From Atribacterota bacterium (GTDB taxonomy: Bacteria; Atribacterota; Phoenicimicrobiia; Phoenicimicrobiales; Phoenicimicrobiaceae), in contig DASRMF010000060.1 of NCBI GenBank assembly GCA_035648055.1, positions 1,195-65,194 of the forward strand: a DNA stretch of 64,000 bases, written 5' to 3'. Positions within the stretch are counted from its first letter, which is position 1; the number at the start of each line of letters is the position of its first letter. Below, one piece after another: positions 3,246 to 60,983 of this stretch. The position numbers were made by a program, and so were the translations under genes. A model generated the notes under the pieces. The model had not been told where the DNA came from. It worked only from the letters and a program-made list of their open reading frames with translations, and did not search any database.

Positions 3246-3289
3246 TTAACCAGGTAACCAATTAACAAGTTAACTAATTCTCGTAGGAA

Positions 3290-3366
3290 TGGTGTGCCCG
3301 AGAGGACTTGAACCTCCAATCTACGGCTCCGGAGGCCGCCGCTCTATCCAATTGAGCCACGGGCAC
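3290..3366 (-). tRNA. tRNA-Arg (anticodon CCG), CCA encoded
   Basis: Reverse complement gives GTGCCCG..GCGGC-CTCCGGA-GCCGT..GGAGG-TTCAAGT-CCTCT-CGGGCAC-A-CCA. A full cloverleaf can be drawn: 7 bp acceptor stem, anticodon loop CUCCGGA with anticodon CCG, T-loop TTCAAGT, 5 nt variable loop. Confidence 0.85.
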
Positions 3367-3375
3367 ACATATAAT

Positions 3376-4116
3376 CTATCTACCATAGCTTAACCTATCA
3401 GCTAAACTACTGGGTAAGCCGGCATTAATTATTTTACCTTTGGTTAGATGAATCGGGTAGGAAACACGATAAATATTAACAATTCCACATTTCGGGTCAT
3501 AAATACCATAGCTTGCCTTTGGATTACCGTCACGAGGTTGACCAACGCTCCCACAATTAATAATATACCTTTTATTCTTGCTAATTTCAATACATCCACC
3601 ATTGATATAATCTATATAATTTATTTGATTATTATTTTCATCAAGAGAAAAACATCCTGCTAAATGGGAGTGGCCTACAAAACATATTTTAAAATTAAAT
3701 TTACTGAAGATTAAGCTTGCGGTATTTTTATCTAAAATGTATTCTAATATTGGGTCTTGAGGACTGCCATGAACCAAAAAGACTCTATCTTTAAGTTCAA
3801 TCTTTTTGCTCAGGCTTAATAAAAAATTAATGTTCTCATTTTTTAATTGGCGAGAAGTCCATAATATTGCAGCTCTCGCAGCAAAATTAAAATAATTTAT
3901 ATCTACTTTTCCCACAACTGCAAAATCGTGATTTCCGCCAACACATTTACAGTTTAAATCTTTTACCTTTTCAATGCAATAATTGGGATCAGCACCATAA
4001 CCGACAATATCTCCCAAACAAATAAATTCATCAACCCTTTTAATGTTTTTTAAAACACTATTTATTGCTTCAGAATTACTATGAATATCAGAAAGTATTC
4101 CAATCTTCATTATCAT
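3376..4116 (-). CDS. Metallophosphoesterase (calcineurin-like phosphoesterase family)
   Basis: 246 aa. Motifs DIHSN, GDIVGYG, GNHD and GHSH are typical of the MPP superfamily. RBS AAGGA. Confidence 0.8.
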
Positions 4117-4172
4117 CCTTTTAAAATAAATTTATAGATTTATTAGAGCATCTTTTTAATAAAATTATAATG

Positions 4173-4225
4173 ACCCGGGATTGCTTCCCCTGCTTTCGCT
4201 GGGGCAGGCTTGCTTCGCAATGACT
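4173..4225. other. GC-rich structured island (gcttcCCCCtgctttcgctGGGGcaggc hairpin plus flanking ttgcttc repeats) between the ATPase operon terminator and the phosphoesterase gene
   Basis: A local GC spike in a ~30% GC genome. The CCCC/GGGG and GCTT/AGGC stems can be read from the sequence. Confidence 0.35.
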
Positions 4226-4240
4226 AAAAAAATTGATATA

Positions 4241-4280
4241 AATAAAAAAACGGTGTATTTATAATGTACGCCGTTTTTTA
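4241..4280 (-). terminator. Rho-independent terminator of the V-type ATPase operon, bidirectional in form (A-run, hairpin, T-run)
   Basis: 7 bp stem CGGTGTA/TACGCCG with one G-U wobble and a 9 nt loop, sitting immediately after the atpD stop codon. It is flanked by A7 on one side and T6 on the other. Confidence 0.6.
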
Positions 4281-4895
4281 TGCTCTTATAATCTCCTTAA
4301 TTCTCATAATTGCCGAAGTACTTGATCTGGCCATTTCGTCTAATTTCATAGTAATAAATTTTATTGTTTCTTCCAAATCTGGAATTATTACATATTCTAA
4401 TGCATTAACCCTTCGCCTGGTTTTTTCAATCTCATTAGCCAAAAGAGTTATGGATTTGTCTAATTCGGCTACTCTTAACATTAAAGGCAATATTTCATGA
4501 TATTTTTTTAAAGCACTGTCCAACTCGGCAGTGGTATCAACCAGCCCATAAGAATAATATCTTCCCTCACATTTAAGTTTGTATTGGGGAACATTTACAC
4601 TCATTACATTCTTAAAGGAGACTTCCGCTCTACCTTTTGCATTAGTAAGCATTAGGGTTTCCTCTAAAGCCAACTTGCTCATTAAAGAAGAGGTGTTAGA
4701 AAAAATAGCATAACATTTCAGAAGCTTTTCTTCTAATTCCTCCCTGAGCATGTTACTTTCTTTTGCTAAACGAACAAATACTTGAATTAATGCATCTCTC
4801 TTATCTTTTAGTAGTTTATACCCTCTCTTGGCGACAAGAAGTCTCTTTTTTAATCTTATTAACTCCATTCGATTTGGATTAACCTTTAACAGCAT
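4278..4895 (-). CDS. atpD: V-type ATP synthase subunit D
   Basis: 205 aa. N-terminus [19 protein letters not shown]...[14 protein letters not shown] is typical of subunit D. Confidence 0.9.
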
Positions 4896-10595: not shown

Positions 10596-10650
10596 CTATT
10601 TCTAATTAATGATAAAGTTTAACTAATACTCCTAAGTCTTATCTTCCTTA

Positions 10651-10673
10651 CGCGATACGCGATACGCGATACG
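10651..10673. repeat. Tandem heptamer repeat (CGCGATA)x3 inside the element TCTTACGC(GATACGC)nGAATT
   Basis: Read from the sequence. Homologous copies occur at 55668-55688 and 60957-60978, and a decayed copy near 51634-51660. Confidence 0.8.
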
Positions 10674-10685
10674 AATTACTGTTTC

Positions 10686-15256: not shown

Positions 15257-15407
15257 TTTTACTCCAAATTAAATTAGTCGTTAACGTATCGTATTGCGTT
15301 AGGAAAATCAGGATTCAGTTATTGTTTATCAGTTTGTTAAGGTTTCTGAATTCTTAATCAAGTAACCAACTAACTAGCTAACTTTTTCTATGATTTAAGA
15401 AATATAT

Positions 15408-15438
15408 CTCATTACTTGTTACTTATTACTTATTACTG
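15408..15438. repeat. Partial copy (right arm, TTACTTATTAC heptamers) of the TAAGTAA/TTACTTA repeat family, overlapping the dxr stop codon
   Basis: ctcattacttgttacttattacttattactg matches the right arms at 32190-32214 and 57770-57810. Confidence 0.6.
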
Positions 15439-16601
15439 GGCTTTATATTTTTACAAAAATTTAAAGCCCTTTCCCTGGCCCAGTAATCAGCATCTAAAAT
15501 ATCGTTAATATTGGGATTATATTTTGCTTTATGTTCTTTCATTGTGTCTTGAATAATTTGAGGAATTGCTAAAAAACCTATTTGATTATTTAAAAAAGTA
15601 TCAACTGCAATTTCGTTTGCGCCATTTAATACTGCTGGCATTGTTCCCCCAATCTCTAATGCCTGGTAAGCAAGTTTAATACAGGGGAATTTATTAAAAT
15701 TGGGTTTCTTAAAAGTTAATTGTCCTATTTTGGTTAATTCTAAGCGTGGAAAGTTATTAATAGTTCTAGTAGGATAAAATAAAGCGTACTGGATGGGAAT
15801 TTTCATATCGTGCTCACCTATTTGAGCTAAAATAGTACCATCTGTAAATTGAACCATTGAATGCACATAACTTTGGGGGTGAATTACTATTTCTATCTTA
15901 TTAGCCGGTATATTAAAAAACCACCTTGCTTCAATTACTTCTAATCCTTTATTCATCAAGGTTGCCGAATCAATGGTAACTTTTTTCCCCATTTTCCAGG
16001 TGGGATGATTCAGCGCGTCCTCCGCTGTTACATTTTTTAGAGCGGCTTCGGTAAAATTATAAAGCGCGCCCCCGGATGCCGTCAGTATAATTTTCTCAAC
16101 ACAATCTTTTTTTTCATTCTTTAGACATTGTAAAATTGCGCTATGTTCACTATCTATTGGTATAATTTTTGCATTTTTAGATATTGCTTCCCTCACTAAT
16201 AATTCGCCACCTACTACCATTGCTTCTTTGCTGGACAAAGCAATTCTTTTCCCTTTTTTTACTGCCTCAAAAGTAGGTATAAGAGATGCTATCCCGGTGA
16301 TAGCAACTACAATAATATCAGCTTCTTCTAATGTTGCTATATTTATTAATCCGTTAGTCCCCCATAATATTTTAATATTATTTTGTTTGTTTAAATTTTT
16401 TTTCAAATTCATGGCAGCTATTTCATTTTTAACTACTGCTATTTTAGGTTTATAAAAACTTATCTGCTCCTTAAGCAATTTTGTATTTTCCCAGCCGCTT
16501 AGACCCACTACTTCAAATTCATTTGAATGTTGTTTTAGAACTTCCAGAGTTTGCTGCCCTACTGAACCCGTTGAACCTAATATTACTATTTTTTTTCTCA
16601 T
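15426..16601 (-). CDS. dxr: 1-deoxy-D-xylulose 5-phosphate reductoisomerase
   Basis: 391 aa. N-terminal NADPH-binding motif ILGSTGSVG. Confidence 0.92.
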   Translation of the reverse strand: MRKKIVILGSTGSVGQQTLEVLKQHSNEFEVVGLSGWENTKLLKEQISFYKPKIAVVKNEIAAMNLKKNLNKQNNIKILWGTNGLINIATLEEADIIVVAITGIASLIPTFEAVKKGKRIALSSKEAMVVGGELLVREAISKNAKIIPIDSEHSAILQCLKNEKKDCVEKIILTASGGALYNFTEAALKNVTAEDALNHPTWKMGKKVTIDSATLMNKGLEVIEARWFFNIPANKIEIVIHPQSYVHSMVQFTDGTILAQIGEHDMKIPIQYALFYPTRTINNFPRLELTKIGQLTFKKPNFNKFPCIKLAYQALEIGGTMPAVLNGANEIAVDTFLNNQIGFLAIPQIIQDTMKEHKAKYNPNINDILDADYWARERALNFCKNIKPSNK

Positions 16602-19761: not shown

Positions 19762-19787
19762 ATTTTTATCCTTCGGTATATTAACTA

Positions 19788-19817
19788 GCGTATAGCGTAC
19801 AGCGTTTAGCGTATAGA
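19788..19817. repeat. Tandem 7/8-mer repeats AGCGTAT-AGCGTAC-AGCGTTT-AGCGTAT (CGATACG family)
   Basis: Read from the sequence between pyrH and tsf. Confidence 0.75.
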
Positions 19818-21333: not shown

Positions 21334-21363
21334 ATAAAAGAAAGTATCGGGTATATGGTATCG
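21334..21363. repeat. Tandem heptamers AGTATCG-GGTATAT-GGTATCG-AGTATCG (CGATACG family)
   Basis: Read from the sequence between hslU and rpsB. Confidence 0.75.
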
Positions 21364-21420
21364 AGTATCGAGTTAAGAAAAAAATGACTAACTTAATCAA
21401 ACAATTGGTGAATCGTTGAA

Positions 21421-31934: not shown

Positions 31935-31987
31935 AAAAACACCTACTTTTTTAGAGAATAGTATCGAGTATGGATACAGTAACAAGT

Positions 31988-32017
31988 GATGAGTAATGAG
32001 TGATAAGTAATAAGTTT
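31988..32017. repeat. Purine-rich heptamer array GTGATGA-GTAATGA-GTGATAA-GTAATAA (TAAGTAA family, forward arm)
   Basis: Read from the sequence. Confidence 0.7.
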
Positions 32018-32041
32018 CGTGTTGCAAGTTTTCGCATTTCA

Positions 32042-32120
32042 TTGATAATTAGTTAATTAGTTAGTTGGTTACCTGGTTAATTGGTTATTAAATCAATGCA
32101 TAGGAGTTAACTAACTAATC
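32042..32120. repeat. TTAACYAA-family degenerate tandem repeats (ttagttaattagttagttggttacctggttaattggttatt ... gttaactaactaatc)
   Basis: Read from the sequence. Relatives occur at 3246-3280, 15350-15390, 48875-48925, 50385-50450, 54825-54910, 55755-55805 and 57648-57700. Confidence 0.7.
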
Positions 32121-32136
32121 AAAAAAGGATGTAACG

Positions 32137-32242
32137 TGTGATAAGTAATCTGTAATAGGTGTTTGTTTTTATAATTTCCGAAATTTAAGCTTATCACTTA
32201 TTACTGTATTTTACTATATACTAGATACTAAATACTATATAC
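32137..32242. repeat. Dyad-symmetric intergenic element, copy A
   Basis: Left arm gtgtgataagtaatctgtaatagg, a spacer containing gtttttataat, then right arm cttatcacttattactgtattttac and tail actatatactagatactaaatactatatac. GTGATAAG and CTTATCAC are exact complements. Confidence 0.7.
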
Positions 32243-32615
32243 TTAAGTTACCATCAAGGTAAAAAGCATCCTTAATATGTTTTATTCTTTTTATATCTTT
32301 AAGGTTAGAGATACTGATCAATATTACATCAAAGCAATAATTATTTTTCCAAAGATTGTATTTAGCCAAATAGCATAAAGCATTTTTAATTATTTTTCGT
32401 TGTTTATTATAGTTTATTGCTTCTTCAGGATATCCAAACTTATCAGAACGCCTTGTTTTTACCTCCACAAAGACAATATCACCTTTATATTCACTGATAA
32501 TATCTATTTCTCCTAAGAAAGTATGGAAATTCCTCTCTTTTATCTTGTAACCTTTAGTTTCTAAATATTTACAAGCTAAATCTTCGCCGTATTTTCCTAT
32601 ATTTATATTATCCAT
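32235..32615 (-). CDS. yraN: UPF0102 family endonuclease YraN
   Basis: 126 aa. Conserved GEDLACKYLETKGYKI ... EIDII ... VEVKTR motifs. Confidence 0.85.
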   Translation of the reverse strand: MDNINIGKYGEDLACKYLETKGYKIKERNFHTFLGEIDIISEYKGDIVFVEVKTRRSDKFGYPEEAINYNKQRKIIKNALCYLAKYNLWKNNYCFDVILISISNLKDIKRIKHIKDAFYLDGNLSI

Positions 32616-48358: not shown

Positions 48359-48372
48359 TTAGTAACTACTAA
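48359..48372. promoter_or_regulatory. Candidate FapR operator, palindrome TTAGTA-AC-TACTAA, just downstream of the fapR promoter -10
   Basis: The half-sites TTAGTA/TACTAA are identical to the B. subtilis FapR box (TTAGTAccagaTACTAA) but with a 2 bp centre. The site lies at about +2 to +15 relative to the predicted TSS. Confidence 0.45.
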
Positions 48373-48380
48373 TTGTAAGT

Positions 48381-48409
48381 ATTATATATTAGTCGTATCT
48401 AAAAATCAA
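48381..48409 (-). promoter_or_regulatory. Consensus-like sigma-70 promoter of the fapR-plsX-fab operon (-35 TTGATT, 17 bp, -10 TATAAT)
   Basis: Reverse complement is TTGATTtttagatacgactaataTATAAT. Confidence 0.5.
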
Positions 48410-48546
48410 GCATTTTTGTAAAGTATCGAGTAAAATTATAGCGTGGAGCGCATAGTTAGGAAAAAAGAAAGAAGACAGAAAAAGTAATATTGGTCTTTTT
48501 GTCTAACTACTCTATTAAAGTTTACAATAAATTTATATTATGGAAA

Positions 48547-48586
48547 TAAAAAAAGTGCCACAATCTAATAAATTAACTGTGACACT
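48547..48586 (-). terminator. Intrinsic terminator downstream of rpmF
   Basis: On the minus strand, hairpin AGTGTCACAG..loop..ATTGTGGCACT (8 bp stem with one mismatch) is followed by U8. Confidence 0.45.
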
Positions 48587-48628
48587 TTCTCATATCTAAT
48601 AATTCTAATAATAATGATATTTTATAAT

Positions 48629-48826
48629 TTATTTCTTTTTATCTTTTTTCTCAGAAGTTGGAATAATTTCTTTTCCATTATAATAACCGCATTCAAGACA
48701 TGCCCTGTGAGGTAATTTCATCTCATGGCATCTCGGGCATTCCTCTAAGTTTACTTCTTTCAAATTCCAGTGTGTGCGTCTCTTGTCTCTTCTGGATTTT
48801 GATGTTTTTCTTTTGGGCATCGGCAT
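48629..48826 (-). CDS. rpmF: 50S ribosomal protein L32 (zinc-ribbon type)
   Basis: 65 aa. CPRC ... CLEC zinc motif. L32 family. Confidence 0.9.
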   Translation of the reverse strand: MPMPKRKTSKSRRDKRRTHWNLKEVNLEECPRCHEMKLPHRACLECGYYNGKEIIPTSEKKDKKK

Positions 48827-48978
48827 AGCGTATACCTCCTTTTGTCATAATATAGTTTAATTGTATATCTCTGTTCGTTAAATAGTTAATTGGTTAACCA
48901 ACTAACAGGCTAACTATCTTGATAACTTTAAAAGTATATAATTTCTTATTGAAAAAAGCAAATTATTTTTTAATTTTT

Positions 48979-50328: not shown

Positions 50329-50396
50329 CTTTCTAATTTTCTTCTTTTTACTATAAACTTGCTAACTTATTTACTTATTTTTATTGTAATAATTGG

Positions 50397-50442
50397 CCGA
50401 TTGACCAATAAACCAATTCTCCGATTGACCAATTTGCCAATT
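50397..50442. repeat. 22 bp tandem direct repeat CCGATTGACCAATwwrCCAATT x2, upstream of ackA and downstream of pta
   Basis: 50397-50418 and 50421-50442 are near-identical. A related CCAATTCTCC(A/G)ATT unit occurs at 57650-57690. Confidence 0.75.
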
Positions 50443-50571
50443 AAATTAGTAGACAGCGTAATTCGTATCTCGTTAAGAATTATTTAGTCGGTAAGTGTTA
50501 TAATTTTTTCTGGCTTCTGATTTCAATCTTTTTGCTCGATACGCTAAACGCTATCCGCTAATTTTATATAT

Positions 50572-51573: not shown

Positions 51574-51751
51574 TTATCTTCTCCTTCTAATAAATATTTA
51601 TTCTAACTTCTTTCCCTTGACATCTTTCTTTTTTTTCTTACGCAATACACAATATTTCTTATATTCTGATTTCTGATTTCTATTTTCATCACTCAATACG
51701 ATATAAGCAATACTATATACGAAAATGTTACTATCAATTTTATTGCAAATT

Positions 51752-51760
51752 TTGTATAAT
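51752..51760 (+). promoter_or_regulatory. Extended -10 promoter element TTGTATAAT upstream of tmcAL
   Basis: TGnTATAAT motif 36 nt upstream of the ATG. Confidence 0.35.
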
Positions 51761-51795
51761 TATAACATAAAATATTTTTTAAATCGAGAAATCTT

Positions 51796-53118
51796 ATGAA
51801 AATATTAGGAATAATTACTGAATATAATCCTTTTCACAATGGCCATCTTTACCATCTTTTTAAAGCAAAAGAAATAACCGGGGCAGATTATGTAGTGGCA
51901 GTCATGAGCGGAAACTTTTTGCAGAGAGGAGAACCGGCAATTATAAATAAATGGGCCCGAACAAAGATGGCACTAAATGCCGGTGTTGATCTGATAATTG
52001 AGCTGCCTTTTGTTTTTTCTACTCAGGATGCAAACGGCTTTGCCTTTGGAGCAGTCAAATTACTTGATTCGCTTCAGATTATAGATTATCTATGTTTTGG
52101 CTGTGAAACTGATAATCTTGATACCCTTTACTCTGTAAGCAATTTTTTGCATATTGAACCACAGAAATATAAAGAACTGATAGTACATAATAGTAAAAAC
52201 GGATACGAATTTCCAAGGGCAAGGGCTCAGGCCTTATGTGAGTATCATAGGATATTCGGAATAGAAGGTTTAGAAAAAATATCACCTTTAGAGCTAAGTA
52301 CATTACTAAAACACCCCAATAATATTTTAGCTTTAGAATATATAAAACATCTAATAAATTTAAAGAGCAAAATCAAACCTATAGCCATAAAAAGAATAGG
52401 AGCAGGTTATCATCAAAAGAATATTAAAGGTAAAATTTCCAGTGCCACCTCTATTAGAAATGAAATACTAAATAGCTTGGGCTCCCCTAAAACCGACCTT
52501 TTTATACTAAATGATAAAATAAAATCAACCATTCCTCAATCAGAATTTCCTATATTAGAGAAAGAATTAAGAGAAGGTAGAGGCCCTATCACCTTCGATT
52601 CTTTCCGGCAATATATTCTTGCTACCCTGAGAAAGATGCCATTGGAAGACATTTCTCATATTCAGGGAGTAACCGAGGGATTGGAAAATCGAATAAAGAA
52701 AGCATCTTTAAAATCCTGCACCGTTGAGCAATTAATTAATTCAATTAAAACCAGGAGATACACCCGTACTAAAATTCAACGCATAATCCTACACCTTATG
52801 ATGAACCTCTCTAAAAAAGATGTAAAAATATTTAATAGATGCGGACCTTTATATGCAAGGGTTTTGGGATTCTCCAGGAAAGGGAAAACTCTATTAAGAA
52901 CCATTAAAAAAATTTCTTCTACACCATTAATCAGTAAATTATCAAATTATTTAAGGCAAACAATCTCTGAGGAAAATAACAATGTTCGAAATAGATTAAT
53001 TAAGATGCTCGAACATGACATTCTTGCTACTGATATATATGTTCTTGCTAATGAAAAAGCAGAAGATAGGGTGGCTAGACTTGATTTTACCCACAAAATA
53101 GTAATAAAAAAAGACTAG
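51796..53118 (+). CDS. tmcAL: tRNA(Met) cytidine acetate ligase TmcAL (YlbM/DUF795 family)
   Basis: 440 aa. The N-terminus EYNPFHNGHLYH ... VAVMSGNFLQRGEPAIINKWARTKMAL is close to B. subtilis YlbM. It is one of only two +-strand genes in the window. Confidence 0.85.
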   Translation: MKILGIITEYNPFHNGHLYHLFKAKEITGADYVVAVMSGNFLQRGEPAIINKWARTKMALNAGVDLIIELPFVFSTQDANGFAFGAVKLLDSLQIIDYLCFGCETDNLDTLYSVSNFLHIEPQKYKELIVHNSKNGYEFPRARAQALCEYHRIFGIEGLEKISPLELSTLLKHPNNILALEYIKHLINLKSKIKPIAIKRIGAGYHQKNIKGKISSATSIRNEILNSLGSPKTDLFILNDKIKSTIPQSEFPILEKELREGRGPITFDSFRQYILATLRKMPLEDISHIQGVTEGLENRIKKASLKSCTVEQLINSIKTRRYTRTKIQRIILHLMMNLSKKDVKIFNRCGPLYARVLGFSRKGKTLLRTIKKISSTPLISKLSNYLRQTISEENNNVRNRLIKMLEHDILATDIYVLANEKAEDRVARLDFTHKIVIKKD

Positions 53119-53152
53119 ATTATTTCTTATCATTCATAATAATTTTTCACCT

Positions 53153-54145
53153 TTATAATTTTATTAATTTCATTATTGCATCATCAAAATCATCAACCGG
53201 AATGATTCTAATACCATGACTGAATTTAAGAGCTTCTGGATAATTTTTTTGAGGGACTAAAAATACATCAGCTTTATGTTTTTTTGCAGATATTATTTTT
53301 TGTTTAATTCCATCTACTTCGGTTATTCTCCCATCCATACTTAAATTACCGGTTCCGGCAACCAACAAGCTACTGCTTAGATCATTTTCGGTTAATTGAT
53401 TCAATATTTCTAAGGCAATCATCAAACCAGCAGAAGGCCCTTTTATTTTTTCTAAATTTATTTCTATTTCTAAAGGGAACCTGCATTGAAGATCTTTAGT
53501 ATCAGCATAGACACCTATCCCTATTCCTCCTGTTTCATCTTCAGCGCTAGGAAGTTCAATAAGAGAAATTGATGATGAATAAGTACTGTTATCTCTTAAA
53601 AAAGTAATTCTAACTATTTGGCTTGAATTATAACTTCTAATAATTTCTGAAAATTCTTCCAGAGTATAAACCGGTTGCTCGTCAATTTTTGTAATCACGT
53701 CACCCGATAATAATTTATTTTTTGCCGAACTGTTATCCAATATTCCGTTAATCAATATTCCTCTTCCAGATATTTCCGGAGTATACCCTGCTTTCCTTAA
53801 AGCTACAACTTTAGAATTCATCTGGCTTTCCTGCATTAATTTTTCCATTATATTAGTATGATCTTTTTTAGCTATATTCAATAATGTTTCATCATCTCTA
53901 TTTTTTAAATCGATATTAGGATCAAAAAAACCATAAAGATATAATAACAAATTTGCTTTTATTATGGCAGTTGAAGTGAGCAGAAATTGGCCTTTAGCGT
54001 CTTTTTCGCCATTTTCTACCGTAATTTTTTCACTAAGATTGATGGCCTGCCCGGGGATTACCAGGTAATAGGGGGTCGGGATTAGACTAAGTAAAATTAG
54101 AAATGTGATGATAATAATTATAAAATATCTTTTGAAATAGTACAT
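53153..54145 (-). CDS. YlbL-like membrane-anchored PDZ + Lon-C (S16) protease
   Basis: 330 aa. N-terminal TM helix, PDZ domain, and a Lon proteolytic domain with the GPSAG serine motif. Confidence 0.8.
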   Translation of the reverse strand: MYYFKRYFIIIIITFLILLSLIPTPYYLVIPGQAINLSEKITVENGEKDAKGQFLLTSTAIIKANLLLYLYGFFDPNIDLKNRDDETLLNIAKKDHTNIMEKLMQESQMNSKVVALRKAGYTPEISGRGILINGILDNSSAKNKLLSGDVITKIDEQPVYTLEEFSEIIRSYNSSQIVRITFLRDNSTYSSSISLIELPSAEDETGGIGIGVYADTKDLQCRFPLEIEINLEKIKGPSAGLMIALEILNQLTENDLSSSLLVAGTGNLSMDGRITEVDGIKQKIISAKKHKADVFLVPQKNYPEALKFSHGIRIIPVDDFDDAIMKLIKL

Positions 54146-54227
54146 TGTTTCTCTTTATTCTAAAGGTAGATTTTTACTCCGATTTAATAATAAATATTTT
54201 CTATAAAAAAACGATGGAATTGATTTG

Positions 54228-54716
54228 TTAAGCTTTTTTATTAATAAATAATGTATTTAATTTTTTCTCTACAATTTTCGGGACCAACTGGGATATGTTG
54301 CCATTTAAACTTGCTATTTCTTTAACTATACTGGAATTTAAGTAGGAATACCTGGAACAAGTAACCATAAAAATTGTTTCAATTTCCGGAGCAAGTCTTT
54401 TATTCATTAAAGCCAATTGGGATTCATGTTCAAAATCAGAGATAGCTCTCATCCCCCTGATTATAATGTTTGCTTTATTTTTTCTCACAAAATCAGTTAA
54501 CAAACCGGAAAATGACAGTACTTCAACATTTTCCAAATTCTTGGTGACCTCTTTTATCATATCTGTTCTTTCTTGGGCTGAAAACAAAGTTGATTTTTTA
54601 GAATCGACTGCTACTGCTACTATTAATTTATCAATAATTTTTGTGGTTCTTTCAATAATGTTTAGATGGCCATTAGTAACAGGATCAAAACTACCTGGAT
54701 AAACAGCTATTTTCAT
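54228..54716 (-). CDS. coaD: Phosphopantetheine adenylyltransferase
   Basis: 162 aa. Motif YPGSFDPVTNGHL. Confidence 0.93.
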   Translation of the reverse strand: MKIAVYPGSFDPVTNGHLNIIERTTKIIDKLIVAVAVDSKKSTLFSAQERTDMIKEVTKNLENVEVLSFSGLLTDFVRKNKANIIIRGMRAISDFEHESQLALMNKRLAPEIETIFMVTCSRYSYLNSSIVKEIASLNGNISQLVPKIVEKKLNTLFINKKA

Positions 54717-54905
54717 TTTTCCCTCCTTAAAATACAGACAGTATCGAGTATCGCGTGAAGAAAATTAGATTTCAAATTGCTAAACGTTTTATCATATGCA
54801 CCCCTAATTTTCTCTCACTTCCAATTTCTTAGCCAGTTAACTAACCAATTTATTAATTGTATACGCTCTACGCTAATTCTCCTAACCATTTAACTAGTTA
54901 ACTAA

Positions 54906-55463
54906 TTAAATATTAACATATTCATAAAAAGATAGAAAGCACTCTCCGTATCTTCTTTGATTATTTAACCTCAAATTAGCTAATTTTTCCATAATTTTTT
55001 CCTTTTTGTAATGTTGAGCAATCACCAAACCATTGTGCCTCAATATAGGGAATTTTGATATCTCTAATAGAGATATGTTTACCAGTCCTTTGTCGTAAGG
55101 AGGGTCAAGAAAGATAAAATCCAATAAATAATTTTTTTTAGCTAATAGTTTTAAACCGGACAAAAAATCTATCTTGTAAATTATAGCATTTTGGCTATTT
55201 TCTGTTTTTTCTAAATTATCTTTTATAATTTTTATGCATTTTTGTTCTTTTTCAATAAAGATTGCTTTTTTTGCTCCCCTGCTTAAGGCTTCGATTCCTA
55301 CTGCACCGGTGCCTGCAAATAGATCTAAAAAACAGGTTTCATTGACAGATGTTCCTAAAATATCAAATAAAGCTTCCCTCACCTTTTCAGAAGTAGGACG
55401 AACAGATAAATCCTTAGGCGATTTTAATATATTACCCTTATTTTTTCCAGCAACAATTCTCAT
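54906..55463 (-). CDS. rsmD: 16S rRNA (guanine966-N2)-methyltransferase RsmD
   Basis: 185 aa with a DPPY motif and SAM-binding LDLFAGTGAVGIEALSRGA. Confidence 0.88.
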   Translation of the reverse strand: MRIVAGKNKGNILKSPKDLSVRPTSEKVREALFDILGTSVNETCFLDLFAGTGAVGIEALSRGAKKAIFIEKEQKCIKIIKDNLEKTENSQNAIIYKIDFLSGLKLLAKKNYLLDFIFLDPPYDKGLVNISLLEISKFPILRHNGLVIAQHYKKEKIMEKLANLRLNNQRRYGECFLSFYEYVNI

Positions 55464-55478
55464 AATTTCACCTCAACT

Positions 55479-55501
55479 CGTATTGCGTATCGAGTATCGT
55501 G
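55479..55501. repeat. Heptamer repeats CGTATTG-CGTATCG-AGTATCG (CGATACG family, reverse orientation)
   Basis: Read from the sequence. Confidence 0.75.
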
Positions 55502-55536
55502 TAGTAGTTATTCAATTACCCTGTCAGCAAGTCAAA

Positions 55537-55582
55537 TTAGTTTTTAGTTACTGGTTTTTAGTTTTTAGTTGTTAGTTTTAGA
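55537..55582. repeat. Degenerate tandem repeats of GTTTTTAGTT / TTTTTAG (about 5 units)
   Basis: ttagtttttagttactggtttttagtttttagttgttagttttag. Confidence 0.75.
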
Positions 55583-55667
55583 TAAAGAAATCAATTTACG
55601 ATTTTCGGTTTTCTTAACCAACTATCCAACTATACATGCTATCTGCTATTTTTCTTAATGCAATGCT

Positions 55668-55688
55668 CGATACGCGATACGCGATACG
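55668..55688. repeat. (CGATACG)x3 tandem heptamer repeat, homologous to 10651-10673
   Basis: cgatacgcgatacgcgatacg followed by aaatt. Confidence 0.8.
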
Positions 55689-55730
55689 AAATTGGCTTCT
55701 GAATTCTGACTGCTGGCTCCCTTATTCTTT

Positions 55731-55760
55731 CTTCTTCTTCTTCTTCTTCTTCTTCTTCTT
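55731..55760. repeat. Perfect (CTT)10 trinucleotide microsatellite (~13 units including the imperfect 5' flank)
   Basis: cttcttcttcttcttcttcttcttcttctt is a homopyrimidine/homopurine tract, ~145 bp upstream of rpmB. Confidence 0.9.
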
Positions 55761-55902
55761 TCCTTAACTAATTAACCGGGTAACCAAATAACCAGCTAAC
55801 CAAATGTCGTGAATTTTAAATAATTACTTGCCAAGACTTCATATAATATGATAAAATAGCTACTGTTAAATATTTTTTATAACTAACAGGAGGAAATATA
55901 AA

Positions 55903-56091
55903 ATGGCAAAATGTGATATTTGCGGTAAAGGTCCGCAATTTGGCAATAAAATAAGCCACTCTCATAGAGTTACTAAAAGAATGTGGCATCCCAATCTTCA
56001 AAAAATAAAAGTTAATATTGATTCTACCGTAAAAAGAATTAATGTCTGCGCTAAATGCTTAAAGGCCGGCAAAGTAAAGAAAAGTGCTTAA
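55903..56091 (+). CDS. rpmB: 50S ribosomal protein L28
   Basis: 62 aa, [33 protein letters not shown]. Strong AGGAGG RBS. Confidence 0.92.
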
Positions 56092-56930
56092 CCATACCAT
56101 TCTTTAAGTTTATCAATAATTTCATTAGTTATCCAATCAGGAGTAGAGGCACCACTGGTAATTCCAACTTTATCTTTAGGATGAAACCATTTATATTTTA
56201 GTTGGTTTTTAGTTTCTATATGATAGGTCTTTACTCCCTGATTCTTACTTATTTCTGCTAATCGGGTTGTATTCGCGCTTTCCTTTCCTCCGATCACCAA
56301 CATCACATCTACTTCACTCGCTAACTCAAGTACGCTTTTTTGTCTTTCTGTTGTAGATTTACATATTGTATTAAATATTCTTAATTCCTCAGCTCTGTTT
56401 AACAAAGAAGATGCCAATTTATAAAAATCATAAACATTTTTGGTGGTTTGAGATATAAAACCAATTTTTTTCTTTGTAGTTATTCTCTCTACCTCGTGAA
56501 TTGAATTTACCACTAAAGCATTATTTTGAATCGTATCCAATAAACCTATTACTTCCGGATGTTTTTTATCCCCATAAATAACTATAAAATAATCCTTTTT
56601 GTATAAACGGTTTACTATCTTTTGGGCTTTTCTAACATATGGACAGGTAGTATCAACTACAGATAATTTTTTTTGGTAGGCCTTTTTAAGGATTGTGGGA
56701 GAAATACCGTGCGCCCTAGTTATAATCGTGCTTTCTTTCAGAACTTCATCTAAATTATTTGCTATCTTTACTCCCTTTTTTGTAAAATATTCTATAACCT
56801 GGGGATTGTTTATTATTGATCCCAGCATATAAAGATTATCTTTTCTTTCTTTTAAGGCATTTTTTGCTAAGTTTACAGATTTTTTAACTCCGAAACAAAA
56901 CCCCATTTTTTTAGATAATATTATTTTCAA
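56088..56930 (-). CDS. ispH: 4-hydroxy-3-methylbut-2-enyl diphosphate reductase
   Basis: 280 aa. The N-terminal GFCFGV motif and LytB family conservation. Confidence 0.9.
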
Positions 56931-57636
56931 TTTGTTTTTCCTCTGTCTTTTTTTTGCTTTTTATTATCTTTAAAATCTCATCTTTAACTTCCTCAATGCT
57001 TTTTTCTGTAGAATCTATAAGAATAGCATCTTTTGCCCTAATCAAAGGAGCATATTTTCTCTTGCTGTCGATTTTATCTCTCTGTACTATCTGTTTCTTA
57101 ACTTCTTCATAATCCAAATTATAACCTTTATCTATAAGTTCTTTATATCTCCTCTTAATTCTTTCCTCCTCAGAAGCAGTAAAATATAATTTTAAATCTG
57201 CTTTTGGTAAAATTACCGAACCTATATCTCTACCTTCCATTACAATATTCCCTTTTTTGGCTAATTTTCTCTGTAAATGAATTAACTGTTTTCTTATTTT
57301 GGGTAGTCTAGCTATTTGAGAAACATTTCGATCAATTTTTGGATCGCGTATTTTTTCAGTTACATCTTCTTCGTCAACAAAGATATGGTAATAATCTTTC
57401 AAACTATTAGTATTTGTTTTTTTGATAGTTATGCAGGTGTTTGAAACTATATCGGAAATCATATTTTCATCGTTTATGTCAATATTATTTTTTAAAACTT
57501 TCCAGGTTATCGCCCGGTAAATTGCTCCTGTATCAATATATGTATGGCCCAATTCACGAGCAATTAATTTACCCATAGTACTCTTACCTACGGCAGCCGG
57601 TCCATCTATTGCGATTATTAAACCATTTTTTTTCAT
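56911..57636 (-). CDS. cmk: Cytidylate kinase. Start re-assigned to the ATG at 57636.
   Basis: MKKNGLIIAIDGPAAVGKSTMGK gives a P-loop at the N-terminus as in Cmk. GGAGAA RBS lies upstream. The 40 aa ORF-track extension is a translation of intergenic repeat DNA. Confidence 0.85.
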   Translation of the reverse strand: MKKNGLIIAIDGPAAVGKSTMGKLIARELGHTYIDTGAIYRAITWKVLKNNIDINDENMISDIVSNTCITIKKTNTNSLKDYYHIFVDEEDVTEKIRDPKIDRNVSQIARLPKIRKQLIHLQRKLAKKGNIVMEGRDIGSVILPKADLKLYFTASEEERIKRRYKELIDKGYNLDYEEVKKQIVQRDKIDSKRKYAPLIRAKDAILIDSTEKSIEEVKDEILKIIKSKKKTEEKQIENNII

Positions 57637-57700
57637 AAATTTATCAATTCTCCAATTAACTAATGAACCAATTCTCCAATTTACCGATTGACTAACAATG

Positions 57701-57826
57701 GATGTAATGTGTAATATGTGATAAGTAACATGTAATAAGTAACCGTTTTTACACATTCATAAATATAATCTTATTACTCATTACACATTACTTATTACTG
57801 TATTTTATACTCGATACTGTATACTG
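57701..57826. repeat. Dyad-symmetric intergenic element, copy B, homologous to 32137-32242
   Basis: Left arm gtaatgtgtaatatgtgataagtaacatgtaataagtaac, a spacer containing gtttttacacattcataaatataat, right arm cttattactcattacacattacttattactgtattttatac, and tail tcgatactgtatactg. The 12 bp match gtaatgtgtaat/attacacattac and the 11 bp match gtaataagtaa/ttacttattac are exact complements. Confidence 0.75.
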
Positions 57827-58552
57827 CTAAACAATTTTCTTCAGACTTTTAATTTCTTCTTTATTTAAATACCTATACTCTCCCGGTTTCACGTCCTTTA
57901 AGGAAATAGGACCTGTCTGAATTCTTCTCAGTTTTAAGACAAAATGTCCAATGAATTCAGCCATTTTTCTAATCTGTCTTTTCTTTCCTTCTTTTATTTT
58001 TATTTTTAATATGGCATTTCCGTTAATAGTGTTTAACAAGTAAATACTGCAGGGAGACAACTTATAATTGTTTTTTAAAGTTACTCCTTTTGATAAAAAT
58101 TTTAATTTTTCAGAGGAAGGGATCCCTTTTAATTTAACAATGTAAACTTTTTCTACTTCTTTTGATGGATGAGTTAAGGCGTAGGTCAACTCACCGTCAT
58201 TAGTAAAGATTAATAATCCTTCAGAATCATAATCTAATCGACCAACCGGATGCACTCTTTCTTTTACGTCTTTCAGTAAATCCATCACTGTCTTTCTGCC
58301 AAAAGGGTCAGATAAAGAAGTCAAATAACCTTTAGGCTTATTTAGCAATATATAACTATAATGCTTATCCTCTTTATATTTTACTAATTTATCATCAACT
58401 TTAATAATATCTTTTTGAGGATCAACCTTAGTTCCCAACTCAGTAACGACAAAGTTATTTACCTCAACTCGACCCTGAAGGATAAGTTCTTCACATTTTC
58501 TCCGGGAAGCAATCCCTGCTCCCGCCAAATATTTTTGTAATCTTTCAATCAT
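57827..58552 (-). CDS. rluB: Pseudouridine synthase (RluB/RsuA family)
   Basis: 241 aa. N-terminal S4 domain (LQKYLAGAGIASRRKCEELI) followed by a RsuA-type catalytic domain. Confidence 0.88.
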   Translation of the reverse strand: MIERLQKYLAGAGIASRRKCEELILQGRVEVNNFVVTELGTKVDPQKDIIKVDDKLVKYKEDKHYSYILLNKPKGYLTSLSDPFGRKTVMDLLKDVKERVHPVGRLDYDSEGLLIFTNDGELTYALTHPSKEVEKVYIVKLKGIPSSEKLKFLSKGVTLKNNYKLSPCSIYLLNTINGNAILKIKIKEGKKRQIRKMAEFIGHFVLKLRRIQTGPISLKDVKPGEYRYLNKEEIKSLKKIV

Positions 58553-58553
58553 G

Positions 58554-59036
58554 TTATTTAATCCCTATTTCGCTTAATTTAGGAAGATCATTAATTTTTT
58601 TTAAGCCAAAATGTATTAAAAAAAAGTCCGTAACTTTGTAAAGTAAAGGATTTCCAAGTGCTTTCTTTCTCCCGCTAATTTTTACAAATTTGTGCTTTAG
58701 TAAATTAAATAAAACCCCTGTGCAACTTACTCCCCTTATCTTTTCAATTTCTAAACGTGTTACCGGTTGATTGTAGGCAATAATAGCCAGAGTTTCAAGG
58801 GCTGCTTTAGAAATTTGATGCTTTCTTTTATTTTCTAAGATTTTTTTTACCCAGACAGAGTACTGTGGCTTGGTTCCCAGTTTATACCCACCGGCAATTT
58901 CATATATTTTAAATGGCCTACCATCATCGTTATATTTTGAGATTAATTCATTAATAATCGGTCTACTTCTTTTTTTCTCAAGATCGGTAATCTCTTTTAT
59001 CTTGTCAAGGGTTAATGGATTATTATATACCAGCAA
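58554..59036 (-). CDS. scpB: Segregation and condensation protein B
   Basis: 160 aa, ScpB winged-helix family. Confidence 0.85.
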   Translation of the reverse strand: MLVYNNPLTLDKIKEITDLEKKRSRPIINELISKYNDDGRPFKIYEIAGGYKLGTKPQYSVWVKKILENKRKHQISKAALETLAIIAYNQPVTRLEIEKIRGVSCTGVLFNLLKHKFVKISGRKKALGNPLLYKVTDFFLIHFGLKKINDLPKLSEIGIK

Positions 59037-59047
59037 TAAGCATTCTA

Positions 59048-59842
59048 TTATATTGCTCCATTTTGAATTGTTTCTTGATTTTTCTTTAACTTTAAAGCAT
59101 CTCCTTTCAAATTGAACATTATCCTATCAAAGTTTTTCTTCTGATAACATCTTATCTTTTTTAAATATATAAGTTCTAATAAAGAAAGAAAAATAACAAT
59201 AATTTCTAACTTACTCTGAGCCCTTTCCATGAAATAATCGAAAGATAATCCTTCTTTACTGCCCTTCAACAGATTAATTATTTCTTTCATCTTGGAAGCG
59301 GTAGTAAAAATCCTTTTTTTAAAGGGTATAAAATCTTCTTTCTTTGTATTCTGTAATACTTTATCCAAAGAAGTTAAAAGATCTGCTAAATCAACTTTCT
59401 GAATTTCTACACCATCTTCTTTATCATTGTTTTCTATCGCCGGAAAATAGATATTATTTTGGGTCCCTTCCCTTTCCTTTAAATATTTGACCACTTTTTG
59501 AAATTTATCATATTCCTGAAGATATGCCTCTTTTTCTTTTGAAATCATAAAATCATTATATTCATCATCTTCCTCTTCATTGGTTTTAACTTCCAGTTTA
59601 GGAAGAAGATTTTCTGATTTTATTTTTAATATTAGCGCTATTTCAGCAATGGTTTTACCGGTAATGCTCAGATCAATAGTACTCTTGTTTTGAATAACAT
59701 ATTTTAAATATTGATCTATTATTTCAGTAACAGGTACCTCTTCAATATCTATGATGTCTTCTTTTATATTTCTCAATAATTCGTCTACAGAACTATCTAA
59801 ATCATTAATATTTATCTTAAAGCCAACATCCTTATTATTCAT
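59048..59842 (-). CDS. scpA: Segregation and condensation protein A (kleisin)
   Basis: 264 aa, ScpA family, adjacent to scpB. Confidence 0.85.
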   Translation of the reverse strand: MNNKDVGFKININDLDSSVDELLRNIKEDIIDIEEVPVTEIIDQYLKYVIQNKSTIDLSITGKTIAEIALILKIKSENLLPKLEVKTNEEEDDEYNDFMISKEKEAYLQEYDKFQKVVKYLKEREGTQNNIYFPAIENNDKEDGVEIQKVDLADLLTSLDKVLQNTKKEDFIPFKKRIFTTASKMKEIINLLKGSKEGLSFDYFMERAQSKLEIIVIFLSLLELIYLKKIRCYQKKNFDRIMFNLKGDALKLKKNQETIQNGAI

Positions 59843-60821
59843 AATACAAATTCATAGCTCTTTTTGCTTCATCGAGAGTCTGTTTAGCTGTTTGCCTTGC
59901 CTTTTTACTCCCTTCGATTACAATTTCTCTAATTATTTTTGGATTTTTTTCATAATATCTTCTTTTTTCCCTAAAACCCTCAAACTTGTTTACTAAGGTC
60001 TGTGCCAACTTCTCTTTACATTCTACGCATCCCAATTTTCCTGATTTACACCCGGCAGATATTTCGTCAGTTTTTTGCGGATTAAACATCTCCTGATAAG
60101 TAAACACAATACAAATATCCGGATGTCCCGGATCATTCAACCTTATTTTTTGGGTGTCAGTTATCATTGTTTTCACTTTTGCTTTAATTTTTTCCGGAGA
60201 ATCGGATATGGAAATAGTATTTCCTAAGCTTTTACTCATTCTTTTTCCGTCAGTTCCCGGCACACGTGGAATCTTGGTCAATTTTACCTGGGGTAAAGGA
60301 AAAATATTCTTATAAAGATTGTTAAATCTCCGGGCTATTTCCCTAGCTAATTCTATGTGGTGTACCTGATCTTCTCCCACTGGTACCGCATTCGCTTTGT
60401 AGATCAATATATCTGTAGCCATTAGAACCGGGTATCCCAAAAGACCATAACTAATATTGTCTTTCAATCCTAAATCTCGTACCTGTTCCTTTAATACCGG
60501 ATTTCTTTCTAACCAGGGCAAGGGAGTAATCATGGAAAAAAGTAGGTGTAATTCTGCATGTTCCGGGACATAAGATTGTATCAATACAGTGCTTCTTTCG
60601 GGGTCAATACCTGCGCTAAACCAATCTATAAGCATTTCCTTAGTATTTTTATTTAAATCTTCAGTTTTATCATAACCAGTAGTTAGAGCGTGTAAATCTA
60701 CTACTCCAAAAAAACACTTATATTCTTCCTGAAGTTTTACCCAATTTTCTAAGGCACCTAAGTAATTTCCCAAGTGTAATTTGCCGGTAGGCCGCATTCC
60801 GCTGAAAATTATTTCTGCCAT
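59835..60821 (-). CDS. trpS: Tryptophan--tRNA ligase
   Basis: 328 aa. Class I motifs HLGNYLGA (HIGH) and KMSKS. Confidence 0.93.
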   Translation of the reverse strand: MAEIIFSGMRPTGKLHLGNYLGALENWVKLQEEYKCFFGVVDLHALTTGYDKTEDLNKNTKEMLIDWFSAGIDPERSTVLIQSYVPEHAELHLLFSMITPLPWLERNPVLKEQVRDLGLKDNISYGLLGYPVLMATDILIYKANAVPVGEDQVHHIELAREIARRFNNLYKNIFPLPQVKLTKIPRVPGTDGKRMSKSLGNTISISDSPEKIKAKVKTMITDTQKIRLNDPGHPDICIVFTYQEMFNPQKTDEISAGCKSGKLGCVECKEKLAQTLVNKFEGFREKRRYYEKNPKIIREIVIEGSKKARQTAKQTLDEAKRAMNLYYE

Positions 60822-60913
60822 TTAAAGTACTCCTCTCTTGTTTTTATTATTGAAAATAGTAAAAACCCATGATAAAAAACTCAAAACTTTTTTTGTCTTC
60901 TAGCTCCTGTGGG

Positions 60914-60927
60914 CACGATGCATCGTG
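60914..60927. promoter_or_regulatory. Perfect 14 bp palindrome CACGATGCATCGTG between the M50 protease gene and trpS
   Basis: Read from the sequence, in a GC-rich local context. Possible protein-binding site or hairpin. Confidence 0.3.
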
Positions 60928-60956
60928 TTCCTACTTTTTAATCCTAATTTTCTTCA

Positions 60957-60978
60957 CGCAATACGCAATACGCGATAC
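60957..60978. repeat. (CGCAATA)x2-CGCGATA heptamer array, copy of the TCTT(C)ACGC(GATACGC)n element
   Basis: tcttcacgcaatacgcaatacgcgatactaatt is homologous to 10640-10676. Confidence 0.8.
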
Positions 60979-60983
60979 TAATT

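Follow-up and report, generated by a model that had tools for sequence, protein, structure and literature searches.

Ordered mosaics of degenerate 7- and 8-bp tandem repeats in the intergenic spacers of JS1-like Atribacterota

We describe a system of short, degenerate tandem repeats that occupies intergenic spacers in a 64,000-nt stretch of Atribacterota DNA (GenBank assembly GCA_035648055.1, contig DASRMF010000060.1, positions 1,195 to 65,194; hereafter the window) and in related loci. The system comprises about ten module types, most of them tandem arrays of three to six units with a unit of 7 or 8 bp. We call these modules intergenic mosaic elements. With confidence only a little above even, we favour the view that they form a lineage-specific, non-coding, dispersed mosaic repeat system that has spread by copying between spacers and is resized by slippage. 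JS1 Atribacterota are reported to be among the most abundant bacteria of methane-rich subseafloor sediments and are essentially uncultured.

Data and array detection

The window has a GC content of 32% and a monotonic GC skew, and its minus strand holds nearly all genes. It takes up nearly all of ENA metagenome contig ERZ27294402 k141_267242. Relatives were compared as IspH-based Atribacterota loci and Dxr-based metagenome contigs, labelled L002, L003 and so on. The IspH of the window is 83-88% identical to that of Atribacterota metagenome-assembled genomes (MAGs) including Ca. Sediminicultor, and about 20 kb of synteny is kept across 20 Atribacterota loci; the Dxr search contributed further JS1-like metagenome contigs, at 69-96% identity and with synteny kept. 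Sediminicultor is placed in the family Phoenicimicrobiaceae of the class Phoenicimicrobiia (JS1) (PMC11227167), and, judged from its protein sequences, the host of the window is a JS1 Atribacterota bacterium near Ca. Sediminicultor. Degenerate arrays were called at a minimum of three units and a lag match of at least 78%, and promoters were predicted from consensus matches and conservation among relatives.

Results

Arrays are concentrated in spacers

A preliminary description of the window, made from its sequence alone, had listed 7-8 bp repeats in three families and placed them in nearly every intergenic region. All the listed sites are present, at or within a few bases of the positions given, including the array reported inside the ATPase operon (Table 1). 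Self-identity at a lag of 7 is 0.375 in intergenic and 0.283 in coding DNA. Period-7 arrays cover 10.5% of the 4,608 intergenic bases against 0.30% of the 59,315 coding bases (about 35-fold), and period-8 arrays cover 2.6% against 0.02%, with no comparable contrast at periods 5, 6 and 9-11. Across 300 dinucleotide-preserving shuffles, the spacers yielded a mean of 0.77 period-7 arrays (maximum 4) and 0.15 period-8 arrays, where 16 and 3, respectively, are observed; periods 6 and 9 show no excess. Core-pair motifs of the CGTAT, GGTTA and AATYGG families number 14, 7 and 6 in 4.7 kb of spacers and 3, 2 and 0 in 59 kb of coding DNA, a density 10 to more than 50 times higher in spacers.

Compositional bias, chance or an assembly artefact might be invoked for a genome of 32% GC, in which short AT-rich words recur by chance and promoter consensus scans come out near background. 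The preliminary description had named coding-sequence frequency and dinucleotide shuffles as the checks on compositional bias, and because the arrays are enriched over both, by the margins just given, that explanation is not borne out. It is further opposed by low-GC outgroups, which carry only 0.74 period-7 and 0 period-8 arrays per 10 kb, and by the recovery of the same modules from more than 30 independent assemblies of different studies. We regard it as effectively refuted.

The extent and diversity of the repeats differ from those first reported. Arrays are found in only 12 of the 24 spacers of at least 60 nt, and cover 791 of 4,422 spacer bases (18%). Instead of three families there are at least eight unit families, CGTATNN, AGCGTNN, NNGTAAT, CAGAANN, AAAACNN, NNGGTTAN, AATYGGNN and AACNGGNN, accompanied by non-periodic linker modules: CACTAACGACTAATTT, GTGAAGAAAA and a hairpin element of about 110 nt. 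Lag mismatches between neighbouring units fall in two phases in 65% of cases, against 53% under the null model (maximum 342 of 614 in 1,000 permutations), and this concentration indicates that a unit combines about 5 conserved core nucleotides with 2-3 free positions, a derivation that is partly circular for the core positions.

Several seemingly coding arrays fall in N-terminal extensions of open reading frames (ORFs) that are missing from homologues (57640-57756 and 31930-32042). In the mechanically called cmk ORF (281 aa) homology begins near residue 39, and in the ComM/Mg-chelatase-like ORF (547 aa), called in the same way, Pfam domains begin at residue 55-56. Both ORFs are, by this comparison, probably over-extended N-terminally into arrays, and gene callers are likely to mis-annotate start codons in the JS1 lineage.

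The system is restricted to a lineage

The repeats occur throughout the related JS1 loci, and 1.27 Mb of DNA from other bacteria has virtually none, in agreement with the lineage specificity proposed for them from the window alone. Period-7 arrays per 10 kb range in the IspH set from 0 to 15.6 in Atribacterota loci (3.75 in the window) and from 0 to 4 in outgroups; in the Dxr set they stand at 4.28 in JS1-like loci against 0.51 in the others, with 1.14 against 0.12 for period-8 arrays. The 1,265 kb of outgroup DNA contain 0 triple-core motifs. Close relatives have many, relatives at 61-67% IspH identity have them at lower density, and L019 and the loci at 69-74% Dxr identity have none; unit families of other kinds are present at some of the latter. 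L059, L061 and L019 count among the array-poor JS1 lineages. A search with nine module consensus sequences found each of them 5-54 times across 433 kb of JS1 DNA, and 0-1 times in outgroups.

Searched against Rfam at gathering thresholds, the whole window returned tRNA only, and region 48000-61200 had no match at E <= 1; nor did the literature that we could search yield an account of intergenic repeats from Atribacterota. These results agree with the initial statement that the repeats could not be matched to a described class, but that statement had overlooked the closest one, the 7-bp short tandemly repeated repetitive (STRR) sequences of cyanobacteria. A link to phages was considered and rejected: module E1 (Table 1) has 0 exact matches in IMG/VR, and 12 matches to a 16-mer of linker E2 lie in unrelated, array-free contexts and are attributed to chance.

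The same modules recur at non-orthologous loci

Over 137 nt, the rsmD leader of the window (55545-55680) shares 90.5% of its positions with the trpS leader of L011, and the rsmD leaders of L007 and L006 match the hairpin element at 57692-57829 at 88% over 111 nt. Module E1 (19783-19816) is matched at 100% over 34 nt by a non-orthologous site in L007 (5644-5677), copies 90-97% identical lie in L003, L014, L021, L015, L010 and L012, and the string recurs at 90-100% in rsmD, trpS, cmk, atpK and rseP spacers of other genomes. The octamer array at 3247-3279 likewise has 91% matches at window 32047-32080 and in spacers of L021, L002 and L012. In these alignments the units of an array keep their particular differences from one another, and larger composites move as blocks.

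Replication slippage had been put forward as the source of copy-number variation. It is supported in so far as unit number varies at orthologous sites, as detailed below, but the presence of the same degenerate strings and of 111-137 nt composites at non-orthologous loci, together with the fixed order and polarity of the modules, makes slippage alone insufficient.

Spacers that bear arrays turn over rapidly

The comparison of orthologous intergenic regions in relatives, which the preliminary description had proposed, revealed variation in both copy number and length at array-bearing spacers. The trpS leader ranges from 44 to 715 nt, and the atpI-atpK, dxr-rseP and tsf-pyrH spacers from 94 to 430, 8 to 249 and 28 to 296 nt, respectively; each lineage carries different modules, and the last 20-40 nt 5' of the start codon are conserved. 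Relative to L051, whose flanking proteins are 92-96% identical, array-bearing spacers keep 58-61% identical positions, whereas array-free spacers agree within 3 nt in length and keep 67-97%. Across L051, L055 and L057 (flanking proteins 85-96%) the corresponding ranges are 15-61% and 63-97%, and the array-free spacers differ in length by no more than a few nt. Since module content is replaced between close relatives, the arrays at any one locus are presumably not gene-specific regulators.

Changes of several sizes are visible. L002 and L003 differ by a cassette-like replacement between conserved flanks, and L004 and L005 by an indel with an 8-bp direct repeat, CTAATTCG, on either side, which fits deletion too. 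The stop-proximal array of the trpS leader has 1-4 units in nine relatives. A perfect (TTC/GAA)10.7 microsatellite stands in the rsmD leader of the window (55729-55760), and with only 3-4 GAA units in L004, L005, L010 and L012 the window run is best explained as a recent slippage expansion.

Modules keep a fixed order and a position-dependent polarity

Read on the transcribed strand, the upstream part of a spacer carries (NNGGTTAN)n-AAG, a purine-rich (GAAG)n or (CAGAAGC)n stretch and (CGTATNN)n, followed either by GTGAAGAAAA or by ATAAAATACAG and the hairpin of (AAGTAAT)n and its complement. Close to the next gene come TTTTCTTCAC(GCGATAC)n, (NNACGCT)n-TAG, TTTTATTCACTAACGACTAATTT (linker E2), (AATYGGNN)n and the Shine-Dalgarno sequence, in that order. 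E2 has a density of about one copy per 8 kb, and the median distance from its end to the next start codon is 18 nt. It has ACGCT arrays upstream in 15 of 46 cases and downstream in 0, and AATYGG arrays downstream in 12 and upstream in 0. Purine runs follow GGTTA arrays in 19 of 35 cases and precede them in one.

Sense copies outnumber antisense copies for E2 (46:8), the GGTTA octamer (20:3), the AATTGG octamer (15:3) and the hairpin element (12:2); ACGCT is unbiased (20:15), and GTATCGCGTGAAGAAAA is biased the opposite way (7:16). Orientation also follows position. Sense (CGTATNN)n arrays begin a median of 3 nt past the upstream stop codon, while antisense ones lie at a relative spacer position of 0.64 (p = 5e-7). 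AGCGT arrays behave in the same manner (0.12 vs 0.75), and AATYGG octamers in the opposite one (0.88 sense, 0.05 antisense). Six orthologous spacer groups hold the CGTAT family in both orientations, and in all six the sense copies without exception lie upstream of the antisense ones. Modules are flipped singly while their linear order is kept, and for this reason the two halves of a spacer are not reverse complements of each other.

Inverted copies of the same module lie toward opposite spacer ends in L008 and L051, with arms that are not spacer-specific. Selected pairing of stop-proximal with start-proximal arms was considered and rejected, since complementarity between arms of one spacer is no higher than between arms from different genomes. 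Of the 408 called genes, 388 are co-oriented, and none of the 20 on the opposite strand has arrays in its leader; for module polarity, transcription and replication are thus inseparable as reference directions.

Position relative to genes, promoters and transcripts

Modules sit in the stretch from a stop codon to the promoter or Shine-Dalgarno sequence that follows, and in the atpI-atpK, dxr-rseP and tsf-pyrH operon gaps arrays fill the stop-to-Shine-Dalgarno interval. Their presence in both operon gaps and leaders suggests that modules take whatever spacer DNA is free. The genes flanking arrays are housekeeping genes, among them those for V-ATPase subunits I and K, dxr, rseP, tsf, pyrH, rpsB, pta, ackA, rsmD, coaD, cmk, ispH and trpS.

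The putative divergent promoters of rpmB and rsmD, with -35 boxes overlapping at TTGCCAAG, are conserved in relatives (window 55815-55899). The rsmD mosaic lies entirely downstream of the putative rsmD -10 box, which would make it part of a leader that measures 60 to about 600 nt; the leader of pta is arranged in the same way. At rpsB, arrays stand between the upstream stop codon and a predicted promoter, TTGATT-17-TATACT, that is conserved in L055, L057, L059 and L060. Because many copies lie inside operons or downstream of conserved promoters, many are probably co-transcribed.

The (AAGTAAT)n array encodes the end of dxr in the window (15426-15440), L051, L055 and L056 (...P-S-N-K-stop-stop). 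Compact relatives that lack it have a Dxr ending in ...N-K-K-stop and a junction of 8-23 nt to rseP, a difference which suggests that repeat insertion has remodelled the 3' end of a coding sequence.

Two other roles were considered and rejected. For the arrays as promoters, a consensus scan gave 74 sites against 57 +/- 7 expected, a result that is near background and uninformative at 32% GC. Large structured leader RNAs are not indicated, JS1 spacers being less structured than those of low-GC outgroups (mean z -1.2 vs -2.4).

The back-to-back divergent regions at 55815-55899 and 51728-51795 are 85-100% conserved across relatives, and the second, a predicted pta/HIGH-nucleotidyltransferase promoter pair, has overlapping TATAAT/ATTATA boxes. 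The rpsB leader (about 130 nt, window 21186-21330) is array-free, conserved in the same four relatives as the rpsB promoter and without a match in Rfam; it may be an S2 autoregulatory leader.

Catalogue of modules

Table 1. Repeat arrays and linker modules in the window (TRF, Tandem Repeats Finder)
Position	Strand	Element	Context and remarks
3247..3279	-	GGTTA octamer array AATTAGTT AACTTGTT AATTGGTT ACCTGGTT	between tRNA-Arg(ccg) and acyltransferase gene; TRF period 8/16
10644..10680	-	heptamer array (CGTATCG) x3-4, end CGTAAGGAAG	V-ATPase operon, gap between subunit I (atpI) and subunit K (atpK); TRF 100% matches; genes identified by Pfam V_ATPase_I, ATP-synt_C
15262..15300	-	antisense CGATACG-type units, then linker E2 (AACGACTAATTT)	directly 5' of rseP Shine-Dalgarno
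15355..15384	-	GGTTA-type octamer array, then AAG and purine-rich stretch	
15404..15440	-	(AAGTAAT)n heptamer array	supplies last codons (S-N-K) and double stop of dxr
19783..19817	-	module E1, CTATACG CTAAACG CTGTACG CTATACG CTAG (ACGCT heptamers)	tsf-pyrH spacer
21349..21381	-	TTTTCTTAAC(TCGATAC)n array	upstream of conserved rpsB promoter
31950..32017	-	(TTACTNA)n heptamers and CGATAC units	called N-terminus of ComM/Mg-chelatase-like ORF; probably 5' of true start
32040..32090	+	GGTTA octamer array, antisense to genes	89-97% matches to L021, L011, L012, L006 spacers
32108..32246	-	hairpin element copy 2: (TAGTATN)n, ATACAGTAATAAGTGATAAG, loop, complementary (ATTACNN)n arm	nhmmer and alignment
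48874..48912	.	back-to-back octamer arrays, palindrome centred on GGTTAACC	
50355..50450	-	(AATTGGNN)n octamers and (AAATAAGT)-type array	acetate kinase leader; non-orthologous matches in L008, L009, L013, L002, L011
50533..50562	-	(TAGCGNN)n heptamer array	immediately 3' of pta stop codon
51634..51689	-	(CAGAAAT)n heptamers and decayed GTATTGCGTAAGAAAA module	pta leader; L004 orthologue 89%
54736..54768	-	module E3 antisense, TTTTCTTCAC(GCGATAC)n	just 5' of coaD Shine-Dalgarno; 92-96% matches in L020, L003, L007, L008, L004, L013
54862..54905	-	GGTTA-type octamers, then TTAGCGTAGAGCGTATAC	directly 3' of rsmD stop codon
55477..55805	-	composite mosaic; in minus-strand order GGTTA octamers 55805-55764, (GAA)10 55760-55729, (CAGAAGC)n 55720-55695, (CGTATCG)3 55694-55660, octamers 55638-55613, (AAAACNN)n 55615-55536, antisense (CGATACN)n 55505-55477	between rpmB promoter and rsmD start
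57645..57692	-	(AATYGGNN) x6 octamer array	ends at cmk Shine-Dalgarno; TRF
57692..57829	-	hairpin element copy 1: (CAGTATN)n, ATAAAATACAG, (AAGTAAT)n arm, loop, (ATTACNN)n arm	
60951..60983	-	(GTATYGC)3-GTGAAGAAAA module	directly after M50-like gene stop, trpS leader; TRF

A nhmmer search recovered 10 copies of the hairpin element in the window and JS1 loci, all 10 in sense orientation. Copy 1 has a predicted RNA fold of -33.5 kcal/mol (z = -3.76), and the 10 copies show a compensatory change in 0 of 12 pairs. The apical loop of the element keeps a small palindrome, AAATTTC-N-GAAATT (window 32166-32190 and 57750-57775; alignment columns 72-100), which we take to resemble AT-rich operator sites such as the CodY box.

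REP-like elements separate from the arrays occupy the same spacers in both orientations. They consist of GTAGGGG and a 6-8 bp stem, for instance GTAGGGGCACGATGAATCGTGCCC and GTAGGGGTCGGATTTATCCGACCC, and lie at window 40-165, 4165-4225 and 60905-60935 and in L002, L003, L006, L007, L010, L012, L020 and L021. Several form inverted doublets about 71 nt apart, in the manner of REPINs (paired repetitive extragenic palindromic, or REP, sequences). Their presence suggests that JS1 genomes may encode a REP-associated tyrosine transposase (RAYT).

Near the end of the window, positions 61636-63909 encode a 757-aa protein in which DHHA1 and two CBS domains are joined to a poly(A) polymerase / CCA-adding head and RNA-binding domains, a domain fusion unusual for a tRNA nucleotidyltransferase.

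Discussion

Origin of the mosaics

In the reading that we favour, modules would be copied from spacer to spacer, most probably by recombination or template switching at repeated cores and at junctions with short homology, with copying by some enzyme as an alternative. Arrays would lengthen and shorten by slipped-strand mispairing, and the conserved cores and strict polarity would reflect orientation-dependent copying or selection, either by a trans-acting factor or at the RNA level. Several observations weigh against this account. We found no mobilising enzyme, no terminal inverted repeats with target-site duplications and no clean insertion boundaries, and the position-dependent flip of orientation is not predicted by simple recombination or slippage. 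Core motifs persist to relatives at about 61% IspH identity despite fast local turnover, which would be easier to understand with a conserved trans-acting factor and suggests function over purely selfish or neutral dynamics. Module copy counts take in orthologous copies and are not independent, gene calls in the relatives' loci are crude and ORF-based, and MAG assemblies may collapse or break at repeats. The case for transcription draws on promoter-like sequences conserved among relatives, and the window itself does not share the putative rsmD -10 box of its relatives.

That persistence of core families is among the arguments for the main rival, which we consider unlikely, though worth serious attention: that the arrays are functional binding platforms, in which the periodic cores CGTAT, AGCGT, GGTTA, AATYGG and CAGAA serve as iterated sites for one or more JS1-specific oligomeric nucleic-acid-binding proteins, dispersal being secondary. 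Such a protein could act on DNA, as IHF and gyrase do on bacterial interspersed mosaic elements (BIMEs), or on co-transcribed RNA, affecting stability, translation or coupling. The division of each unit into a conserved core and free positions agrees with this, as do the strict placement of E2 before starts and of sense CGTAT arrays after stops and the sense-before-antisense order in all six spacer groups; there are precedents in the proteins that bind BIMEs (PMC2817692) and in the proposed role of STRR sequences in transcript stability or coupling (PMC2670836). The content of a locus is nevertheless replaced wholesale between relatives with 95% identical flanking proteins, and some relatives are nearly spacer-free (8-14 nt at dxr-rseP, for example), so that no locus needs a particular module. 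Moreover, half of the longer spacers have no arrays, no candidate protein was found, and CGTAT and AGCGT are common in both orientations, which a sequence-specific RNA binder would not tolerate. A bolder form, in which the arrays are polar recognition sites for JS1-specific nucleic-acid-binding machinery that marks gene boundaries, we regard as a long shot. If it were true, one orientation after stops and the flipped one before starts could organise transcription units or messenger handling, and the 5-nt core with its 2-3 free positions would be a repeat code for an oligomeric protein. The one well-studied isolate of the phylum was reportedly found by Katayama and colleagues in 2020 to have a membrane-bounded nucleoid.

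Dispersal might instead be driven by a transposase, with the modules as non-autonomous elements akin to REPINs or to miniature inverted-repeat transposable elements (MITEs), mobilised through single-stranded DNA by a RAYT, an IS200/IS605-type HUH enzyme or some other transposase. This would explain a polarity tied to the direction of replication and finds support in the near-identical copies at non-orthologous sites, in the strong orientation bias where nearly all genes are co-oriented, in sense and antisense copies that often lie toward opposite spacer ends, among them a 45-nt inverted repeat in L008, and in the REP-like hairpins and doublets of the same spacers. We nonetheless think it quite improbable. 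The window proteins scanned include no transposase-like gene and no consistent target-site duplication was seen; the arrays are direct tandem repeats and not the subterminal hairpins that HUH enzymes recognise; modules are flipped singly in an unchanged order, so that the two halves of a spacer are not reverse complements; and arms are no more complementary within a spacer than across genomes. Contingency loci, in which the copy number of simple-sequence repeats (SSRs) switches expression of a neighbouring gene, are a very remote prospect. Unit number does vary at orthologous arrays, perfect (CGATACG)3 runs and (GAA)10 are present, and 7-bp intergenic repeats are known to drive phase variation (PMC8262952). 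The arrays are, however, short (3-6 units) and degenerate, which implies low slippage rates; they flank housekeeping genes or lie inside housekeeping operons (V-ATPase, dxr-rseP, tsf-pyrH, trpS); and most are outside promoter spacers, the conserved rpsB and rpmB promoters being array-free.

Implications

On the reading of a dispersed, copied and slippage-resized system, the mosaics would be a second case, independent of cyanobacterial STRR sequences, of 7-bp arrays colonising intercistronic DNA. The role of STRR-like repeats is now approachable by comparison, and the strict order and position-dependent polarity point to a copying mechanism or binding factor. The repeats also have practical consequences. 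Hypervariable spacers beside conserved genes offer markers for strain typing and for the microevolution of very slow-growing populations. JS1 repeats are also expected to break or confuse short-read MAG assemblies, with contigs ending in them, and so bear on assembly and binning; in L008 a run of N (scaffold gap, 3487-4201) falls within duplicated repeat modules of the trpS leader.

Comparison with known repeat classes

The preliminary description had likened the repeats to the REP/BIME or nucleoid-site type. REP sequences are imperfect palindromes of 20-40 nt headed by GTAG or GTGG, and BIMEs bind IHF, gyrase and Pol I (PMC2817692). The JS1 system shares with REP, BIME and REPIN elements an abundance of dispersed extragenic mosaics of short motifs, often within transcription units, and to that extent the comparison holds, the architecture being BIME-like. 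The arrays themselves are not REPs, which are GTAG-headed, alternate in orientation and are linked to RAYTs; they are direct 7-8 bp tandem repeats with neither palindrome nor GTAG head, and their mosaic is a fixed order of differing tandem arrays, not of alternating palindromes with linkers. In architecture the closest systems are the BIME, BOX-type and neisserial intergenic mosaic element (NIME) mosaics (PMC2817692, PMC3184786). NIMEs (dRS3/RS) consist of repeat cassettes joined into mosaics between genes; they occupy plastic parts of the genome and may favour recombination (review PMC3184786). The JS1 mosaics share these traits, and the short conserved junction repeats between cassettes, but NIME cassettes are RS units of 70-200 bp without a 7-8 bp internal periodicity. 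RS units are flanked by 20-bp inverted repeats.

Mycobacterial interspersed repetitive units (MIRUs) are also intergenic tandem repeats of variable copy number (PMC3184786). The JS1 units, at 7-8 bp, are of a length not divisible by 3 and occur in far larger numbers, whereas MIRU units measure 40-100 bp, occupy about 40-50 loci per genome and can encode small peptides. According to what Supply and colleagues are said to have reported in 1997, MIRUs lie inside operons in one orientation to transcription and overlap the flanking stop and start codons, and the (AAGTAAT)n array overlaps the dxr stop codon in the same way. The phase-variable heptanucleotide SSRs of the H. influenzae hmw promoters resemble the JS1 arrays in being 7-bp intergenic repeats that change copy number by slippage (PMC8262952), but they are long, perfect and confined to few contingency genes, while the JS1 arrays are short, degenerate, genome-wide and near housekeeping genes.

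In unit structure the closest class is the STRR sequences of filamentous cyanobacteria, tandem 7-bp repeats in intergenic and intercistronic DNA (for example hupS-hupL) that can form hairpins and for which a role in transcript stability or translational coupling has been proposed (PMC2670836). Both systems have 7-bp tandem units, several families per genome, an intergenic or intercistronic location and arrays able to form hairpins by pairing. The cyanobacterial units are reportedly CCCCAGT, TTGGTCA and CAACAGT (attributed to Mazel and colleagues, 1990), and the JS1 units, judged against these sequences, differ from them and come from an unrelated phylum. JS1 arrays are, moreover, shorter, are built from cores and free positions, include 8-bp families, and stand in a fixed order with non-periodic linkers, their orientation following their position in the spacer.

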